The translations under genes were made by a program, and so were the position numbers. The notes under the pieces were generated by a model. It was given only the letters and a program-made list of their open reading frames with translations. It did not search any database and had not been told where the DNA came from. From an uncultured Gammaproteobacteria bacterium (GTDB lineage: Bacteria > Patescibacteriota > Microgenomatia > Levybacterales > GWA1-39-11), in the NCBI GenBank assembly GCA_964537315.1, contig CAZIAP010000003.1, forward strand, positions 75,919-139,918: DNA of 64,000 nucleotides. The letters are read 5' to 3'. Shown here in pieces: positions 1,914-48,029 of the stretch (positions within the stretch are counted from its first letter, which is position 1; every line of letters begins with the position of its first letter).

Positions 1914-3140
1914 ATGAAACAACTTCTTGCTGTTGGATTTTTTTTAGTCCTGATTTTAGGTATCAGATTATATCTCCACTCAGTTCATCCTGCTAAATAT
2001 CAGCCCAATACTCATGTTGAAATTACTGGAATTATCTGGAATGAGCCACAAAGATATGGTCAGATACAGAAGGTGAAAGTGGATGATGTAGTGTTCGTCT
2101 TGCCTGAATACCCAAGGTATGAGTATGGACAAAAACTTAGTTTATCAGGAATTTTAGAAGAAAATACTTTTACTAGCAAAAGTGGAGAAGAGGTCACAGA
2201 GTTAGTTGTTAATAATCCTGAGATTCGTAAGGTTTCTACACCAATCATAATTGGACAAGCTGCATGGATGAGATCTCGCATTATCACAGTATTAACACGA
2301 GTGCTGCCTGTGGATGAAGCCGCTCTTTTACTAGGTGTGACCCTTGGTGTGCGAACTGAGTTCAGCGATGAGTTGCTCGATACCTTTACTCAGACGGGCA
2401 TCTTGCATGTAGTCGCAGCCTCAGGAAGTAACGTGGCTATAGTTGCAGGAGTCATGCTTTTTAGCCTTGAGAGAGTAACAAAGCGTAAGATCTCGATCCT
2501 GAGTACAGGGGCTGCTATCCTATGGTATGCCTTACTTGCTGGATTTGATCCTGCAATTATTCGAGCAAGCTTAATGGCGGTTATTGCCTTGACAGCACAG
2601 TTACTTGGTCGTCAGCGTATCTCTTATTTTATTTTACTACTTACTATATGGATAATGGTCATGGTAAGTCCAGATATCTGGAAAAATGTAGGATTTTTAC
2701 TTTCTGTATCTGCAACAGGTGGAATTATTACGTTAAAACCTTACTTTGATCATTTGTTCAGACGAGCAGGGTTTATTAAAGATGATTTGGGTACAACAAT
2801 CGCCGCTCAGTGGGGAAGTCTTCCGATTCTCGTTGGGACTTTTGGAAACTTTGCTCCTTTGTCCTTAATAGTAAACCTAGCGGTCTTATGGGTTGTGCCA
2901 TTAATTATGATACTTGGTTTATTATCTTCATTTGGAGCAATCATCTACCCAAGCCTCGCAATGCCATTTGCTTATATGGCATATCCTTTTTTATTTTTCT
3001 TTCTAGCAGTAGTCAAGGCGTCGTCCTATTTTGTTGAATCAATTTCAATCATAAAATTATCGCCACTGATATCTATATCATACTATTTCATTTCTATATC
3101 AATTATTCTATATCTAAAGCTAAATCATGTCAAAAGTTAA
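1914..3140 (+). CDS. comEC: ComEC/Rec2 N-terminal part (DUF4131-like OB region plus polytopic competence domain)
   Basis: Competence-domain signature GILHVVAASGSNVAIVAGVMLF and many TM helices. The ORF ends 14 nt inside the next ORF. Confidence 0.8.
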   Translation: MKQLLAVGFFLVLILGIRLYLHSVHPAKYQPNTHVEITGIIWNEPQRYGQIQKVKVDDVVFVLPEYPRYEYGQKLSLSGILEENTFTSKSGEEVTELVVNNPEIRKVSTPIIIGQAAWMRSRIITVLTRVLPVDEAALLLGVTLGVRTEFSDELLDTFTQTGILHVVAASGSNVAIVAGVMLFSLERVTKRKISILSTGAAILWYALLAGFDPAIIRASLMAVIALTAQLLGRQRISYFILLLTIWIMVMVSPDIWKNVGFLLSVSATGGIITLKPYFDHLFRRAGFIKDDLGTTIAAQWGSLPILVGTFGNFAPLSLIVNLAVLWVVPLIMILGLLSSFGAIIYPSLAMPFAYMAYPFLFFFLAVVKASSYFVESISIIKLSPLISISYYFISISIILYLKLNHVKS

Positions 3141-11946: not shown

Positions 11947-12267
11947 GTGACGTGCGCTTTCATATCTCAAACGAGGAAAGAGGAGTTAAACCAGCTCCAA
12001 CTTTTTTTTGAGATCGACCCTGATCGAGAGTTTGCAACCTATGAAGTCGGATGTGTCACCATGTCGTGGTATCGATTTAGGACTGCCTATTTTATCAAGC
12101 TTAAAATAGAGCTAGGAGAAAAAACAGAGCACGAACTGGTTAATCCGTTATTATTGCGTCTTGTGAGGTATGATCCATACAGTGAGTTAGATGCAGTAGT
12201 TCCTGAAAGCGGAGCAATTTGCTTTGTAGCTGACTCACCTGGGCAGTATGGGTTTCGACTTCTTTAA
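11947..12267 (+). CDS. hypothetical protein (106 aa)
   Basis: ORF followed 11 nt downstream by a strong intrinsic terminator. Confidence 0.5.
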   Translation: MTCAFISQTRKEELNQLQLFFEIDPDREFATYEVGCVTMSWYRFRTAYFIKLKIELGEKTEHELVNPLLLRLVRYDPYSELDAVVPESGAICFVADSPGQYGFRLL

Positions 12268-38424: not shown

Positions 38425-40173
38425 ATGAATATTCAATCACAAATAAGATCAGTATTGGAGGAGATTGTGAGCAGGCTTACAGATCAGGAAATAATTTTTT
38501 CGGTATCTGTGCCTGAGATCGCTGAGCATGGAGATTACTCTACAAATATAGCATTATTGCTTGCTAAACCTCTTGGAAAATCACCTCATGAAATAGCAGA
38601 GGTTATAAAACACCAATTAGAAACTGAGAATCAGAAATTAGGAATTATCGATAGAGTCGAGATTGCAGGTCCTGGCTTTGTGAATATATTTATTGCAACT
38701 GAAAAACTAATTGATACTTTAATCCAAGTTGAGCAACAAAAAGATACATTCGGATACAGTAATACACTTTCTGACATCAAAGTGATCACTGAATTTACTG
38801 ATCCGAACCCATTCAAGGAGTTTCATATCGGACACTTGTATAGCAATATTGTAGGCGAGTCTATTTCCCGGCTTACTGAATCACAGGGAGCTGAAGTCAG
38901 AAGAGTCTGTTATCAGGGAGATGTAGGACTGCATGTTGCAAAAGCTTTGTATGGAATCATGAATAATGAGTCACAAATTACGGATATTGAAGATAAATCG
39001 ATTGAAGAAAAAGCAAAGTATTTAGGACAAGCATATGCAAAGGGGGCAAATGCATACGAAGAAAGCGAGGAAGTCAAAAAAGAGATAATAAATCTGAATA
39101 AAAAAATTTTTGAAAAAGACCCACAAGTAGCTGATATTTATGAGAAAGGTAAGAGTTGGAGTCTTCAGTATTTTGAAACCATATATGAAAGGCTGGGAAC
39201 AAAGTTCGATAAATACTTTTTTGAGAGTGAGGTAGGAGAAGACGGACGTAAACTTGTATTAGGATATCTTGAGAAAGGAGTATTTGTAGAAAGTGATGGT
39301 GCAGTAATATTTCCTGGAGAAGAGTATGGTTTACATAACAGAGTATTTATCAACTCTTTAGGTCTTCCAACTTATGAAGCAAAAGAGTTAGGACTTGCGC
39401 CAGCAAAGTATGAATATTACCCATATGATCGGTCAATTGTAATTACAGGAAATGAAATAAATGAATATTTTAAAGTATTGTTAAAAGCACTTTCGCTTAT
39501 CAGACCTGAGCTAGCAGAAAAGACATTGCATATTGGGCATGGCATGGTGCGACTACCTGAGGGTAAGATGTCATCCAGAACCGGAAATGTACTTACTGGG
39601 GAATGGCTACTTGATGAAGCGAAGAAGAGGGTATTGAAAAAGATTGAAGAATCTGAAGATATTCGCAGCTCAAGGTTCACGGTTCAGAGTTCAGAAGGAG
39701 AAGAAGTGGCAGAAAAAGTTGGGTTGGGTGCTATTAAATATGCGCTGCTTAAAAACGGAATAGGGGGAGATATAGCATTTTCATTTGATGAATCTATTAA
39801 TTTTGAAGGAAACTCTGGTCCGTATTTGCAGTACACATATGTCAGGACACAGAGTGTACTGAGCAAGGCGAACCATTCGACTAAATTGGGTCAAGTAAGT
39901 CAAAAATCGAAACTAGAGATTGAGGAGGAGCTAATTTTGCGTCATCTTATTCATTTTCCTGAGATAGTGTCACATGCCGCTACAGTTTATTCTCCTAATC
40001 TAGTTGCCGAGTATTTATACCAACTAGCTCAAAAATTCAACCTTTTCTATGCGAAGCATAAAGTGATGGGAAGTGAAAATGAGGATTTCCGTCTTGCATT
40101 AACCAATTCTGTTGGACAAGTACTTAAAAATGGTCTTGCCTTGCTAGGCATACAGACAGTAGAAAAAATGTAA
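38425..40173 (+). CDS. argS: arginine--tRNA ligase
   Basis: N-terminal Arg_tRNA_synt_N-like region (GDYSTNIALLLAK), class-I HIGH region FHIGHLYSN, and C-terminal DALR-type anticodon-binding region. Confidence 0.9.
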   Translation: MNIQSQIRSVLEEIVSRLTDQEIIFSVSVPEIAEHGDYSTNIALLLAKPLGKSPHEIAEVIKHQLETENQKLGIIDRVEIAGPGFVNIFIATEKLIDTLIQVEQQKDTFGYSNTLSDIKVITEFTDPNPFKEFHIGHLYSNIVGESISRLTESQGAEVRRVCYQGDVGLHVAKALYGIMNNESQITDIEDKSIEEKAKYLGQAYAKGANAYEESEEVKKEIINLNKKIFEKDPQVADIYEKGKSWSLQYFETIYERLGTKFDKYFFESEVGEDGRKLVLGYLEKGVFVESDGAVIFPGEEYGLHNRVFINSLGLPTYEAKELGLAPAKYEYYPYDRSIVITGNEINEYFKVLLKALSLIRPELAEKTLHIGHGMVRLPEGKMSSRTGNVLTGEWLLDEAKKRVLKKIEESEDIRSSRFTVQSSEGEEVAEKVGLGAIKYALLKNGIGGDIAFSFDESINFEGNSGPYLQYTYVRTQSVLSKANHSTKLGQVSQKSKLEIEEELILRHLIHFPEIVSHAATVYSPNLVAEYLYQLAQKFNLFYAKHKVMGSENEDFRLALTNSVGQVLKNGLALLGIQTVEKM

Positions 40174-44338: not shown

Positions 44339-45007
44339 TTAACTAAGGAGGGTTTCTTCATTACACTTATTTTCAAATTCATCTAATGTTATTGCATCTT
44401 CGATAGAAAAATCAGCAACTTTTGTTCGTTGTAGTCCACTTAAGTAGCCACCTGTTTTAAGCATTTCTCCGATGTCTCTTGCGAGTGAGCGTATATATAC
44501 ACCGGGGCCTGTTGTGACTTTTAACTTTAATATGGGGTAGTGGTAGGATATGATTTCAATAGCGTAGATTTTAACCGGACGAGGTTTTAATTCAATGTTT
44601 TCACGGCGACGCATTCTGCGATGCGCAGGAACCCCAGAAATTTTAATCGAGCTGTATTTCGGAGGGGTTTGTAGTATGTCTCCTATGAGTGATTTAATAA
44701 CATTTTTTATAGACAATGTATCAGGAATTTGTTCATTCAAAACCTGTGTTTTTTCTCCTTCAGAATCATCTGTGGTGCTGTGAAAACCTAGGGTGATTTC
44801 AGCAGTATACTCCTTTTTTCCTTTCACAAACTGGTCTAACTGTTTTGTATACTCTCGGCCAATGGCTACAACTAACACACCAGTTGCTAACGGATCAAGT
44901 GTTCCGCCATGCCCAACACGCTTAATACCCGTTATGCGTCTTACTCGGTTTACTACATCGTGAGATGTCATTCCAGCAGGTTTGTGTATTGCAATTATTT
45001 TATTCAT
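44339..45007 (-). CDS. truB: tRNA pseudouridine(55) synthase
   Basis: Internal start MNKIIAIHKPAGMTSHDVV...GHGGTLDPLATGVL with catalytic Asp. The track ORF extends to 45139 from an upstream TTG-type start. Confidence 0.9.
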   Translation of the reverse strand: MNKIIAIHKPAGMTSHDVVNRVRRITGIKRVGHGGTLDPLATGVLVVAIGREYTKQLDQFVKGKKEYTAEITLGFHSTTDDSEGEKTQVLNEQIPDTLSIKNVIKSLIGDILQTPPKYSSIKISGVPAHRRMRRRENIELKPRPVKIYAIEIISYHYPILKLKVTTGPGVYIRSLARDIGEMLKTGGYLSGLQRTKVADFSIEDAITLDEFENKCNEETLLS

Positions 45008-45236
45008 ATTGATATTATATCGCATAAATTTGACAGAATATCCGATATGTGTTTTAAAATAAACTATGAGCGAGTCAGATTTTTCTCCTGAAGAATATAG
45101 ATATTCAGCAGAGCCGGAACGCCTTCCCTCTGATCCCACAGAAGCATCAAATCAGTATCTGGATATGATATTGGCAGAACCAGCAAGTGAATGGTATGCT
45201 TCCATGCTTCAGAAAACTAAGCGAAATCGTTAATCC

Positions 45237-45596
45237 ATGAAAGATGTCTTGATTGAAATTCTCACAATAATCGGTTACTCCGATGATAAGGAAGCATACG
45301 CCGACCAATTTGTTGAGCTAGTGCACCTCAAAACAATGCAGAATAGTCTCCTAACTCTACCTGAAGATAAACAAAAAGAGATTGAAAGATTGTTGGTTAA
45401 TGCGGATAGTCAAGAAGCGGTAGAAAAGATAATTAACGATAATTTTCATGTTGATCTTTACGCAACAATGCTCAAGGATATGTTTTCAGAGATGATAAAA
45501 AACTATATGGAAACCCTTTATCCAACCTTATCACAAACTCAAGTTGCAGAACTAGAAAAGTTATTAAAATTCAACTTTCCTCAGAAGAAAGAGTAA
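45237..45596 (+). CDS. hypothetical protein (119 aa)
   Basis: ORF only. Confidence 0.5.
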   Translation: MKDVLIEILTIIGYSDDKEAYADQFVELVHLKTMQNSLLTLPEDKQKEIERLLVNADSQEAVEKIINDNFHVDLYATMLKDMFSEMIKNYMETLYPTLSQTQVAELEKLLKFNFPQKKE

Positions 45597-45659
45597 GCTT
45601 TTACTTTTGCGGGTATAGAAAATGCCTGCACTGTGTTTTACAGCGCAGGCTGTAATAGA

Positions 45660-46136
45660 TTATCGGTGTTCATCGCTTACAAAGGAGAATTGATGCTTAG
45701 CTTGGACTTTTCGTCCGCTGATGCCTCCGGCAAACTTAGAATTTCTGTATCTCTTACGGATATCCGAAAATTCTTTACTGGCTTCACGCCCGAGTTTATA
45801 GTAGCGTCTTTTTTCCTGACGTACTTCAAGATCTCCTTCCTCATCAGGGATCACAGCCCATGCCTTTCGGACAGAAAGCTGTACTCCATTAATGGTCATC
45901 TTGACCGGATTTTGAGATGGGTCCCGTACTGTTATCCAGTCAGGAAGGTTATCCCAGGAATATTCACTGAAATCTTCCTTCGTCCAGCTCACAACAATCC
46001 GCGAGTCAAGTACAACCACCTGTTTGAAGTCAATCTGCTCACTCACAGACTTGATCCTCTTTCCCGATAAAAATCGTTGGCATCGGCAAGTTCCGATACC
46101 ACCCAAAATACTTTTCAATTTCAGATGGTATAGCAA
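45660..46136 (-). CDS. hypothetical protein (up to 158 aa; start uncertain)
   Basis: Chosen over the fully overlapping plus-strand ORF 45633..46070 because its sequence is less skewed and it is co-oriented with the tRNA/ABC-F genes. Confidence 0.4.
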   Translation of the reverse strand: MLYHLKLKSILGGIGTCRCQRFLSGKRIKSVSEQIDFKQVVVLDSRIVVSWTKEDFSEYSWDNLPDWITVRDPSQNPVKMTINGVQLSVRKAWAVIPDEEGDLEVRQEKRRYYKLGREASKEFSDIRKRYRNSKFAGGISGRKVQAKHQFSFVSDEHR

Positions 46137-46199
46137 CTATGTGGGATTGTATCAAATACTCAAAGAGAGGACAAGCAAAAGTGAGGTGATAATTGTATG

Positions 46200-46272
46200 T
46201 ACCGATGGAGAGAGTCGAACTCTCAGTCTTACCCTTAGGACGGGTCTGCTTTATCCATTAAGCTATAACAGC
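46200..46272 (-). tRNA. tRNA-Arg(CCT)-like gene with a weak acceptor stem (divergent copy or pseudogene)
   Basis: Reverse complement: D-arm GCTT-AATGGATA-AAGC, anticodon arm GACCC-GTCCTAA-GGGTA, T-arm GAGAG-TTCGACT-CTCTC. Only 5 of 7 acceptor pairs (GCTGTTA vs CATCGGT), two of them G-U. Confidence 0.5.
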
Positions 46273-46312
46273 TAGTATTTTCAGCTAATTGCAATTATTT
46301 GTTTCATGATTT

Positions 46313-47794
46313 TTATATTGCTGTGACAGTATCGATCAGCTCAGGAATCCAGAATTGAATTCTGTTTTCCGGAAGTAAAAGTGCTCGATTAGGTTGTAGC
46401 TCTTCTACAAACTCGGGGGTGTGGCTCACAAAAAGCATAGCGCCAGTATAGCTTTTTAAGGCATCTAAAATAATACGTTGTGAGAGTACATCAAGATAAG
46501 TTGTTGGTTCATCTAATATGAGCAAGTTAAAATTTTGTAGCATAAGCATTGCTATGGAAAGTCTTGTTTTTTCACCACCAGATAATGTGCCTACTTTTTG
46601 ATAAATGCGAGGTCCGGGAAAGTTGAACTTTGTCATAACAGGGCGGATTGCCTGCTCAGGGAGGTCTGAGACCTTCTGTACATTCTCGACAATAGTTTTA
46701 TCGAAATCAAAGGTTTCAAACTCTTGTGAATAGTATCCAATTTTTAGATTCTCATCACGTTTAACCTCTCCTGCATCGGGTGATAGTCTGCCCATAAGAA
46801 TTTTGATAAACGTGCTTTTTCCGGCACCGTTAGGCCCAATTAAAGCTATACGTTCTCCTCGGACAATCGAAAGAGAAATATCAGCAAGCACCATATCGTA
46901 GTCGTACATTTTAACAATGTTGGAAGCCTTGATCGGTATTTCTCCTACGGGGTGTGGGGTAGGTAAGATAATTTTTGTACGTTTAATTTCTTTTGGTAGT
47001 TCCGGAAGTGACTCTTTGAGATTTTCTATTCTCTTGCGTAACATTGTGCGTTGTCTGACGCCTTTTTTTGATTTATTGCGAGACATTTTTCGTAGACCTT
47101 CTTCCATGTGCTTAATGTGCTTTTGCTCATTGATGATTTTACGTTTTTCCAGCGCATCTTTTTCAGCCTTTAATGCAAGATATTTTGTGTAGTTTCCGGT
47201 GTATTCTTCAAGTTTATGCGTGATTGGATTGAGAGCGAGCACTTTGTTGATGCGAGCGTCTAGTAACGGGAGATCATGTGAAATTACAATCAATGTTTTC
47301 GGATATTGTCCGAGAAAGTCCATTACCCATCTTTTTCCTGCAGTATCAAGAAAGTTGGTTGGTTCATCAAGCATCAGAATATCCGGTTCTTCTAACAAAG
47401 CACGCAGTAGAGCAAGTTTAGTCTTTTCTCCACCACTGCAGCTCTTGGGAATTGTTTGCAGATCAATATCGGTCATTTCAAGTTCACGGATCATCTCCAT
47501 TAACTCAAAATCGCTTACTTTTTTATGAGGGTCTACAAACTCTCTAACGGATGTGCATTTTTCTAAAACTGGATCGTGTTTGATTTCCTGAGGGACATAT
47601 CCAATTGTTCCAGTTACTTCAATCTTTCCGGCTGATGGAGCATCGATTCCTTGGAGGAGCTTAAGTAATGTTGATTTACCTGCTCCGTTTGGTCCTACGA
47701 GACCAATCTTTCGCTTATTACCAACAGTAAAACTGATATCGTCAAAAACAGGACCAAAGCCATATGAATATGATAAATTTTTAACGTGAATCAT
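46313..47794 (-). CDS. ABC-F family ATPase (two ABC domains joined by a charged linker; EttA/Uup/ARE-type)
   Basis: Two Walker A motifs (GPNGAGKST twice), two LSGGE signatures, and an inter-domain linker rich in K/R/E. Start taken at the internal ATG (MIHVKNLSYSYG). Confidence 0.85.
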   Translation of the reverse strand: MIHVKNLSYSYGFGPVFDDISFTVGNKRKIGLVGPNGAGKSTLLKLLQGIDAPSAGKIEVTGTIGYVPQEIKHDPVLEKCTSVREFVDPHKKVSDFELMEMIRELEMTDIDLQTIPKSCSGGEKTKLALLRALLEEPDILMLDEPTNFLDTAGKRWVMDFLGQYPKTLIVISHDLPLLDARINKVLALNPITHKLEEYTGNYTKYLALKAEKDALEKRKIINEQKHIKHMEEGLRKMSRNKSKKGVRQRTMLRKRIENLKESLPELPKEIKRTKIILPTPHPVGEIPIKASNIVKMYDYDMVLADISLSIVRGERIALIGPNGAGKSTFIKILMGRLSPDAGEVKRDENLKIGYYSQEFETFDFDKTIVENVQKVSDLPEQAIRPVMTKFNFPGPRIYQKVGTLSGGEKTRLSIAMLMLQNFNLLILDEPTTYLDVLSQRIILDALKSYTGAMLFVSHTPEFVEELQPNRALLLPENRIQFWIPELIDTVTAI

Positions 47795-47846
47795 GAGGTT
47801 GATTATCTCGAATTTAGGCGTAAATTGCAAAAAACAAGCAAGTGGG

Positions 47847-47919
47847 TAGCCCCGAGAGGAGTCGAACCTCCAACCTTTCCCTTAGGACGGGACTGCTCTA
47901 TCCATTGAGCTACGGGGCC
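47847..47919 (-). tRNA. tRNA-Arg(CCT): tRNA-Arg (anticodon CCT)
   Basis: Reverse complement: acceptor GGCCCCG/CGGGGCT (G1-U72), D-arm GCTC-AATGGATA-GAGC, anticodon arm GTCCC-GTCCTAA-GGGAA, T-arm GGAGG-TTCGACT-CCTCT. Confidence 0.8.
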
Positions 47920-48029
47920 ATATCTAGCCACAAGTATAGCATGAATGTAGTTTATAGTTAATGGTTATTGGTATGTGTTATATAAGATTTAACCATGATC
48001 TATGAACTAAAAACTATCAACTAACATTG

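Follow-up and report, generated by a model that had tools for sequence, protein, structure and literature searches.

A redundant tRNA-Arg(CCU) gene of separate lineage, probably carried on a 1.28-kb insertion, beside a conserved ABC-F gene in a Levybacteria-like bacterium

Introduction

The minor tRNA-Arg(CCU), for example argW of Escherichia coli, reads the AGG codon and normally derives from a single-copy gene that serves a rare codon. Here we analyzed a 64,000-nt window (the whole stretch of contig CAZIAP010000003.1 of assembly GCA_964537315.1 from position 75,919 to 139,918) of a Levybacteria-like bacterium of the Candidate Phyla Radiation (CPR), in which two tRNA-Arg(CCU) genes, termed tRNA1 (upstream) and tRNA2 (downstream), flank a 493-amino-acid (aa) ABC-F ATPase gene on the minus strand. 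An earlier reading made from the sequence alone (the original prediction) had noticed this arrangement and proposed a tRNA duplication with decay of one copy, a tRNA-primed insertion of the ABC-F gene, or a co-transcribed tRNA/ABC-F unit, and it had taken the close linkage to hint at a functional relation. Our analysis makes it probable that tRNA1 is the resident gene, that the ABC-F gene is conserved in place, and that tRNA2 is a redundant tRNA of foreign lineage on a 1.28-kb insertion, the three forming no functional unit.

Several described systems resemble this locus in part. With the argW-like tRNAs of E. coli these genes share the anticodon CCU, A20 in the D-loop, C35 and a purine at position 73; unlike them, the CPR family has G32 and a non-Watson-Crick pair at 27-43 in 12 of 15 aligned genes, and its locus is occupied by three unrelated-looking sequence types (A, B and C). 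Horizontally acquired redundant tRNAs and tRNA pseudogenes are a second likeness, as tRNA2 has the same anticodon as tRNA1, occurs in one lineage as part of an insertion and contains a weakened helix; in contrast to them, its damage lies only in the acceptor stem and its 58-nt body is unchanged, which suggests junction damage or a very recent arrival rather than long decay. Islands that target tRNA genes, with integration at the 3' end and a partial tRNA repeat, also place a gene between two tRNA-like sequences of the same identity, whereas at this locus no integrase is found, the repeat runs over the D and anticodon arms, and a duplicated truB start marks the ends of the actual insertion. The ABC-F protein has the two ABC domains, PF12848 helical linker and lack of a membrane domain that characterize PoxtA and other antibiotic-resistance (ARE) proteins as well as EttA, YbiT and Uup, and it can be aligned end to end with PoxtA, YbiT and EttA. 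PoxtA is its best solved relative (283 bits, with YbiT and EttA at ~222 bits) and has an inter-domain linker of nearly equal aligned length, but the first ABC domain of the window protein is shorter, and the protein falls below every model cutoff of the named ARE, EttA, Uup and YbiT-like families.

A further comparison concerns metagenome loci, described below, in which a tRNA gene is nested inside another. In archaea and red algae, tRNA genes are known that multiple or transposed bulge-helix-bulge introns disrupt (PMC3978253, PMC3728597), and group I introns are known from tRNAs of Patescibacteria (PMC13011429). The nested loci resemble such disrupted genes in having precise inserts at several positions (D-loop, 37/38, T-loop) and related inserts at different positions, and differ from them in their bacterial hosts, in a main insert of ~105 nt that amounts to an entire tRNA with the same anticodon, in an outer gene usually damaged in the anticodon arm, and in the absence of any Rfam group I intron.

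Results

Structure and lineage of the downstream tRNA

ARAGORN called seven tRNAs in the window, among them tRNA-Arg(cct) at 46199-46272(-) and 47843-47920(-), and both genes lie above the RF00005 gathering score of 29 bits (Table 1). These calls, together with the NCBIfam match of the ABC-F protein (NF000355), reproduce the arrangement and the arms of the original prediction to the base, and the covariance scoring that it had proposed accepts both copies while ranking tRNA2 lower (45.0 bits as against 58.6). Its account of the second copy, with a different T-arm and an acceptor stem paired at five of seven positions, likewise holds in the Rfam alignment and in an alignment of 15 tRNA-Arg(CCU) genes. 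The stem reads G1.U72, C2-G71, U3.G70, G4-C69, U5.U68, U6-A67 and A7.C66 with discriminator A73, such that two of the five pairs are G.U and U5.U68 and A7.C66 are mismatched.

A 54-nt repeat of 83% identity (positions ~8-61) is shared by the two tRNAs and contains their common D-loop (AATGGATA) and common anticodon arm (CCCGTCCTAAGGG). Each of the four stems distinguishes them by compensatory changes to both sides of a pair: three pairs are affected in each of the acceptor and T stems, and a single pair in each of the D and anticodon stems. A metagenome scan for the combined anticodon and T arms of tRNA2 gave 15 loci, all of them hence selected by the type C pattern, and all 15 hold a type C tRNA-Arg(CCU) with a fully paired acceptor stem and G73, adjoined by tRNA-Pro(CGG) in 14. 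Positions 8-65 of tRNA2 are identical to those of L090/L091 and one nucleotide from those of L100, and the Rfam score of tRNA2, 45 bits, falls below the 53-60 bits that its type C relatives reach. Because of the compensatory changes relative to tRNA1 in every stem, and of the identity over positions 8-65 to type C genes elsewhere, sequence comparison places tRNA2 in a separate, normally functional tRNA-Arg(CCU) lineage (type C) whose acceptor stem is defective here. A phage origin of tRNA2 was considered and set aside, as the type C pattern scan of viral contigs came back empty.

Pairing holds in 95.6% of cells across the 15 aligned genes, with two-sided changes in 15 of 21 pairs, and in the acceptor helix (98.1% paired) the sole two unpaired cells are U5.U68 and A7.C66 of tRNA2; in the other 14 genes G7-C66 is invariant and 5-68 is always paired. 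For tRNA2 no seven-pair acceptor stem is predicted to form, and ViennaRNA puts its cloverleaf at -14.0 kcal/mol, 3.5 above a non-cloverleaf minimum of -17.5 kcal/mol, with acceptor pair probabilities of at most 0.08. For tRNA1 and three type C relatives, the predicted minimum-free-energy (MFE) structure is the cloverleaf or a T-stem variant of it (-25 to -30 kcal/mol), with acceptor probabilities of ~1. In tRNA1 itself every cloverleaf pair is formed except G27.A43, which is typical of the family; its cloverleaf lies at -29.5 and its MFE structure at -30.1 kcal/mol, a difference confined to the T-stem ends, and its acceptor probabilities are 0.9-1.0.

The damage to tRNA2 can be assigned wholly to its 5' acceptor strand, GCTGTTA, where relatives have GCCGATG or GCCGTTG with 3' strands CATCGGT or CAGCGGC. 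The insertion junction (TAGCTGAAAATAC-TAGCTGTTA-TAGCTTAATGG) is 15 nt away from this strand, which may have been damaged or rebuilt at insertion, since uniform neutral decay would not confine the changes to the 5' strand near the junction. The rest of the molecule keeps the conserved tertiary nucleotides (U8, A14, G18-G19, U33 and T-loop GTTCGA). ArgRS, the arginyl-tRNA synthetase, of E. coli recognizes A20, C35, U36 or G36 and a purine at 73, and by these rules both tRNAs carry the arginine identity nucleotides (A20 from the D-loop, anticodon CCT, A73). With tRNA1 making it redundant and two of its acceptor-stem pairs lost, tRNA2 is probably non-functional or badly impaired. A custom covariance model built from the 15 tRNA-Arg(CCU) genes and run with filters off gave no second tRNA-Arg match downstream of ABC-F in the close relatives L108, L081, L001, L082, L085, L002/L104, L102/L103 and L101, so that on these sequences the downstream tRNA is unique to this organism among the relatives examined.

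The insertion between ABC-F and truB

In L108, the closest relative, the truB start codon stands directly 5 nt past the ABC-F stop codon, at the position that a truncated copy of the truB start occupies in the window. The genuine start (ATGAATAAAATAATTGCAAT, 45007-44988) and this copy (46307-46288) form a 20-nt direct repeat with 18 of 20 positions identical, and blastn aligns L108 to the window in two blocks (322-1866 to 47832-46288 and 1856-2487 to 44998-44367). Because the homology with L108 breaks and resumes at the two truB-start copies, the segment between them is best read as an insertion into the first truB codons with duplication of the start (Table 1). The junction TAGCTGAAAATAC-TAGCTGTTA-TAGCTT contains three TAGCT starts, perhaps left over from an outer D-arm or produced by slipped duplication.

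None of the three small open reading frames (ORFs) of the insert has a Pfam match, and orf128, tried as a clue to a mobile element, was dropped as an ORFan. What lies between ABC-F and truB varies greatly from relative to relative: L108 has nothing there, L081 a beta-helix protein gene, L082 a 220-aa ORF with EamA and YkuD, L104 a similar set (221-aa ORF) with the orf119 homologue and a 127-aa ORF between EamA and YkuD, and L083 a major facilitator superfamily (MFS) transporter, tRNA-Pro(CGG), two NUDIX genes and YkuD. More distant relatives (L090, L093, L098 and others) carry a type C tRNA-Arg(CCU), and no ABC-F gene, in the same wider neighbourhood (sortase, DsbB, DsbA, tRNA-Arg/tRNA-Pro, truB, NDK, M16 peptidase), which makes a related CPR genome a plausible donor of tRNA2. 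No integrase domain was found in the ORFs between DsbA and NDK. An integrative island at the tRNA was rejected on this ground, on the lack of a tRNA 3'-end repeat, and on the presence of the bracketed gene in relatives without the second tRNA.

Table 1. Positions of the features discussed; window coordinates unless a locus label precedes them.
Feature	Position	Strand	Remarks
tRNA1, resident tRNA-Arg(CCU), type A	47847..47919	-	Rfam 58.6 bits; custom model R1 91.4 bits
tRNA2, type C tRNA-Arg(CCU) copy with defective acceptor stem	46200..46272	-	Rfam 45.0 bits
ABC-F ATPase gene, 493 aa	46313..47794	-	ATG at 47794, stop codon 46313-46315
truB, tRNA pseudouridine-55 synthase	44339..45007	-	Pfam TruB_N 1.7e-43; start placed via L108, L081, L104 alignment
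Truncated truB-start copy ATGAAACAAATAATTGCAAT, left edge of insertion	46288..46307	-	5 nt past ABC-F stop codon
Inserted organism-specific segment, 1.28 kb, between ABC-F and truB	45008..46287	.	carries tRNA2, orf128, orf119, orf55
orf128, 128-aa ORFan inside insert	45660..46046	-	only self-match among 5.8 billion proteins
orf119, small ORF in insert	45237-45596	+	49.6%-identical homologue upstream of truB in L002/L104
orf55, small ORF in insert	45066-45233	+	
Promoter-like TTAACT-17-TATACT, TG-extended, just upstream of tRNA1	47933..47961	-	consensus scan
Promoter-like TTGCAA-17-GATAAT between tRNA1 and ABC-F start codon	47802..47830	-	consensus scan
Terminator-like hairpin and T-run, ~100 nt downstream of tRNA2	46078..46101	-	first such site past ABC-F stop
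Terminator-like hairpin, readable on both strands	45608-45650	both	
Nested tRNA locus, L100	L100:2142-2320	-	
Nested tRNA locus, L090 (= L091)	L090:1330-1570	-	
Nested tRNA locus, L088 (= L094, L097, L099)	L088:440-690	-	
Nested tRNA locus, L095	L095:850-1110	-	
Nested tRNA locus, L096	L096:950-1330	-	

The upstream tRNA and the meaning of AGG

We interpret tRNA1 as the resident and functioning tRNA-Arg(CCU), which decodes the minor codon AGG. This codon is used 81 times in 57 ORFs (4.9 per 1000 codons), and in the one protein checked, PurF, the AGG-encoded residues 112 (in the GHxRY motif) and 213 align with arginine in solved PurF structures. AGG thus has its standard meaning, arginine; a reassignment, which two unlike CCU tRNAs might have suggested, was rejected on the normal use of the codon and on these conserved arginines.

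Near-identical type A genes stand upstream of ABC-F in L108, L001 and L085 (ABC-F identity to the window 93%, 78-79% and 75%, respectively) and differ by only 2-5 nt across the entire genus-level clade, whereas L081 (90%) and L082 (78%) have a type B tRNA-Arg(CCU) upstream, and L002/L104 (80%) and L102 (79%) have no upstream tRNA. The linkage of tRNA1 and ABC-F is accordingly a genus-level, variable trait, type A or B being present in some close relatives and absent in others. Counting type C, three tRNA-Arg(CCU) sequence types replace one another at one locus among close relatives, and comparison of the aligned loci indicates that the tRNA gene upstream of ABC-F is replaced in place between near relatives. 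Type A lies at 47847-47919 in the window and at L108:106-178, L001:1340-1412 and L085:2514-2586, and type B at L081:135-206 and L082:5826-5897. Type B is quite unlike type A and appears even where ABC-F identity is as high as in L081; homology between the window and L081 picks up again only at the ABC-F promoter-like element.

Conservation of the ABC-F gene

The ABC-F protein consists of two ABC domains with a joining linker (its relatives carry PF00005 twice and PF12848) and narrowly clears the NCBIfam model NF000355, 'ribosomal protection-like ABC-F' (387.9 bits, cutoff 380). It scores far lower than required by the models for EttA (292 bits, cutoff 599), Uup (269, cutoff 900) and YbiT-like PRK15064 (269, cutoff 762), and by those of the named resistance proteins (Vga, Lsa, Msr, Sal, OptrA, CplR, Car and others, ~157-265 bits against cutoffs of 680-1450). 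Its nearest named relatives belong to Levybacteria and other Patescibacteria. Orthologues sought in a single genome of each species amounted to 80 loci at 48-80% identity in Levybacteria, Shapirobacteria, Woesebacteria and other Microgenomates; with the fetched contigs included, identities in the first three groups span 48-93%. By these comparisons the gene is a vertically conserved, resident Microgenomates orthologue rather than cargo, and a housekeeping role in translation would be the most economical reading, given that it is conserved as the standard ABC-F of a whole superphylum within the CPR.

A tRNA-Arg(CCT) gene adjoins ABC-F in only one of the 80 orthologous loci (L001, 79% identity), and other tRNAs within 4 kb are of mixed identities. 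Only in relatives of at least 74% identity does the gene lie inside the DsbA...truB neighbourhood. Because the linkage is rare, varies within the genus, and in its downstream part is confined to one organism, these loci do not support a general functional coupling of tRNA and ABC-F. In L101, whose ABC-F is 81-86% identical, the frame is disrupted in the signature motif (L101:190-200, CSG*QKT as against CSGGEKT), which represents either an assembly error or a pseudogene.

Promoters and terminators

A consensus scan placed promoter-like elements just upstream of tRNA1 and between tRNA1 and the ABC-F start codon (Table 1). As the scan was no richer than shuffled sequence, our statements on promoters are based mainly on conservation among relatives. 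The motif ATGCTATACTTG at the former is shared with the region upstream of the L085 type A tRNA. The latter element, TTGCAA-17-GATAAT, is kept in L081, L001 and L108 although the DNA further upstream differs or is unrelated, with the tRNA and everything upstream of the element in L081 being non-homologous to the window, and in L108 a strong terminator-like hairpin lies between the tRNA and the element. Given this conservation against changing upstream DNA, and the hairpin that precedes the element in L108, ABC-F is probably transcribed from its own promoter, and obligatory co-transcription with tRNA1 seems unlikely.

Downstream of ABC-F, tRNA2 begins 40 nt past the stop codon. Our scan of the region found neither a promoter-like site specific to tRNA2 nor a terminator-like site between the stop codon and tRNA2, and it found six terminator-like sites overall where shuffles lead one to expect 2.3. 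Co-transcription of ABC-F and tRNA2 is therefore possible, and tRNA2, if transcribed at all, would be carried on the ABC-F transcript.

tRNA genes nested inside tRNA genes

Among nine distinct type C loci, five have the type C tRNA lying within pieces of a type A-like tRNA-Arg(CCU) gene (Table 1), the outer fragments being detected by the custom covariance model. A 106-nt insert splits the outer gene of L100 at 37/38 (GCTCTCGTAGCTCAATGGATAGAGCAGTCCCGTCCTA, insert, AGGGAAAGATTGGAGGTTCGACTCCTCTCGGGAGC); it is a complete type C tRNA with short flanks, and its removal in silico leaves a valid tRNA-Arg(cct). L088 and L090 carry a cassette with homologous flanks (CCCGCC...GGCGGGCAGG) at 21/22 and 20/21, respectively, and L096 shows four nested layers, each with its own 8-9-bp inverted repeat. 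Additional small hairpin inserts occur in the outer genes, whose anticodon arm is damaged at four of the five loci, and the nested sequences are identical across independent metagenomes. Rfam searches of the nested loci returned no group I intron or other family at E values up to 0.1, no bulge-helix-bulge motif was seen in L100 on inspection by eye only, and we found no description of such a nested tRNA-in-tRNA arrangement in bacteria in the literature.

Two smaller observations accompany these loci. The motif CCACGAAGTGGTCGCAG(G/A)ATGC is common to small inserts of L089 (the outer-tRNA T-loop insert, downstream of 635-708) and L096 (~1330-1400), suggesting that miniature hairpin elements of one family settle in the remains of tRNA-Arg genes. 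In L100 (~2330-2580, minus strand), immediately upstream of its nested tRNA, the 3' end of a neighbouring ORF (...LNRQIKALEEKFIKEGGFSENLFKRRL...) resembles, by eye, the '23S rRNA intervening sequence' four-helix-bundle protein, a family often associated with insertions in rRNA genes.

We tentatively describe these inserts as ~105-nt cassettes carrying tRNA-Arg(CCU), apparently undescribed, of which tRNA2 is perhaps a stranded member. Such a cassette would insert precisely, and without target duplication, into a resident tRNA-Arg(CCU) at the D-loop or at 37/38; it would supply a replacement tRNA of the same anticodon, after which the disrupted outer gene would decay, and repeated rounds could build up nesting of as many as the four layers seen in L096.

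Neighbourhood and assembly

The surroundings are a housekeeping neighbourhood with the gene order sortase, DsbB, DsbA, tRNA-Arg(CCU), ABC-F, truB, NDK, PurF, M16 peptidase and ArgRS. An assembly artefact is ruled out by the identical sequence of the region in L106 and L107, which are independent assemblies of other sequencing runs. L107 represents the same strain (17 mismatches, all synonymous, within the first ~126 nt at contig positions 31-127) and thus yields no evolutionary information. The ArgRS gene (38425-40173, plus strand; Pfam tRNA-synt_1d, DALR_1 and Arg_tRNA_synt_N) lies ~6 kb from both tRNA-Arg(CCU) genes and encodes the N-terminal D-loop-binding domain, and the distant relative L089 has a 26%-identical ArgRS homologue within the corresponding neighbourhood. 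Elsewhere in the window, a weak match to the custom tRNA-Arg model (11956-12032, plus strand; 14.2 bits, E 0.09) overlaps an ORF start, has no counterpart in Rfam or ARAGORN, and is probably due to chance.

Discussion

The account that we favour would run as follows. tRNA2 would have entered this organism's line on a DNA piece of 1.28 kb that also carried three small ORFs, the piece would have inserted into the first truB codons right after the ABC-F stop, duplicating ~20 nt of the truB start, and tRNA2, redundant with tRNA1, would have lost two acceptor-stem pairs at insertion or later. Several points weigh against it. Acceptor mismatches are tolerated in some tRNAs, tRNA2 clears the Rfam gathering threshold, and its 58-nt body shows zero changes from functional relatives, which is unlike long neutral decay, so that it may be a recent arrival or still be in use. 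The reading of the event as an insertion here rather than a deletion in L108 draws on parsimony and on the truB-start duplication, and the promoter scan gave nine sites where 9.1 are expected in shuffled sequence. A rival reading is that tRNA2 works as a second tRNA-Arg(CCU) isodecoder, cut from the ABC-F transcript by RNase P and RNase Z with its mismatches tolerated. Its Rfam score of 45 bits against the required 29, its three intact arms with a body identical to functional relatives, its arginine identity nucleotides, and the absence of a terminator-like site before it with one present after it all fit this possibility. We nevertheless judge it unlikely, considering that the two lost pairs are respectively always paired (5-68) and invariant (G7-C66) in 14 other genes, that the predicted acceptor probabilities fall to 0.08 or below from ~1.0 in relatives, that an intact tRNA1 only 1.6 kb away makes tRNA2 redundant, and that the gene is absent in every close relative. 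The original prediction's duplication with decay of one copy was right about a degenerate copy and wrong about its source. That tRNA2 arose as a local duplicate of tRNA1 would explain the same anticodon, the common D-loop and anticodon arm, and the 83% repeat, but most differences are two-sided and preserve pairing, a pattern that neutral decay does not give, positions 8-65 match type C of distant CPR organisms, and type A genes differ so little throughout the genus-level clade that this origin is very improbable.

The least credible account has ABC-F as the cargo, inserted at a tRNA gene and leaving a tRNA copy on either side. Distant relatives (L090, L093, L098 and others) do hold tRNA-Arg(CCU) and tRNA-Pro(CGG) in this neighbourhood without ABC-F, from which it follows that ABC-F did enter the neighbourhood, at the base of the genus-level clade. 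A tRNA-primed insertion is nonetheless contradicted by close relatives that have ABC-F, its promoter-like element and the upstream tRNA with no downstream copy, by a repeat that spans the middle of the tRNA rather than its 3' end and hence is not att-type, by the missing integrase between DsbA and NDK, by junctions that enclose tRNA2 and the small ORFs rather than ABC-F, and by the vertical conservation of ABC-F itself. In the comparison of gene order that the original prediction had called for, ABC-F lies beside an upstream tRNA in some close relatives and between two tRNAs in none. Its co-transcribed unit fares poorly for tRNA1 and ABC-F, given the conserved promoter-like element and the L108 hairpin, and stands as a possibility for ABC-F and tRNA2, while the functional link that it suggested between tRNA and ABC-F is not supported, with a single adjoining case among 80 loci. 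A refinement of the insertion account that we hold to be possible but doubtful is that tRNA2 is a stranded copy of a tRNA-Arg(CCU) cassette, which landed beside the resident gene, was unneeded there and degenerated. Its nearest relatives (L090/L091 and L100) are cassette-borne and nested in type A-like genes; partial tRNA-Arg model matches flank the inner tRNA in five of nine distinct loci; excision of the 106-nt insert restores a valid tRNA in L100; homologous flanks occur in L088, L090 and L100 at different sites (21/22, 20/21 and 37/38); and the nested sequences recur identically in independent metagenomes. Set against these are the lack of the CCCGCC...GGCGGGCAGG flanks and of recognizable outer tRNA fragments around tRNA2 in searches by custom covariance model and by motif, the lack of an enzyme associated with the nested loci that would account for mobility, and a sample of 15 loci only, all chosen by the type C pattern.

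For the ABC-F gene these results mean that being flanked by two tRNA-Arg genes marks no regulatory or mobile unit and is no evidence of a resistance island. The nested tRNAs are of more interest than the ABC-F/tRNA finding itself. [quoted passage not shown] The pairing of tRNA and ABC-F in this organism is an accident of gene turnover, and it offers a clean case of the turnover of a minor-codon tRNA gene in a reduced genome.

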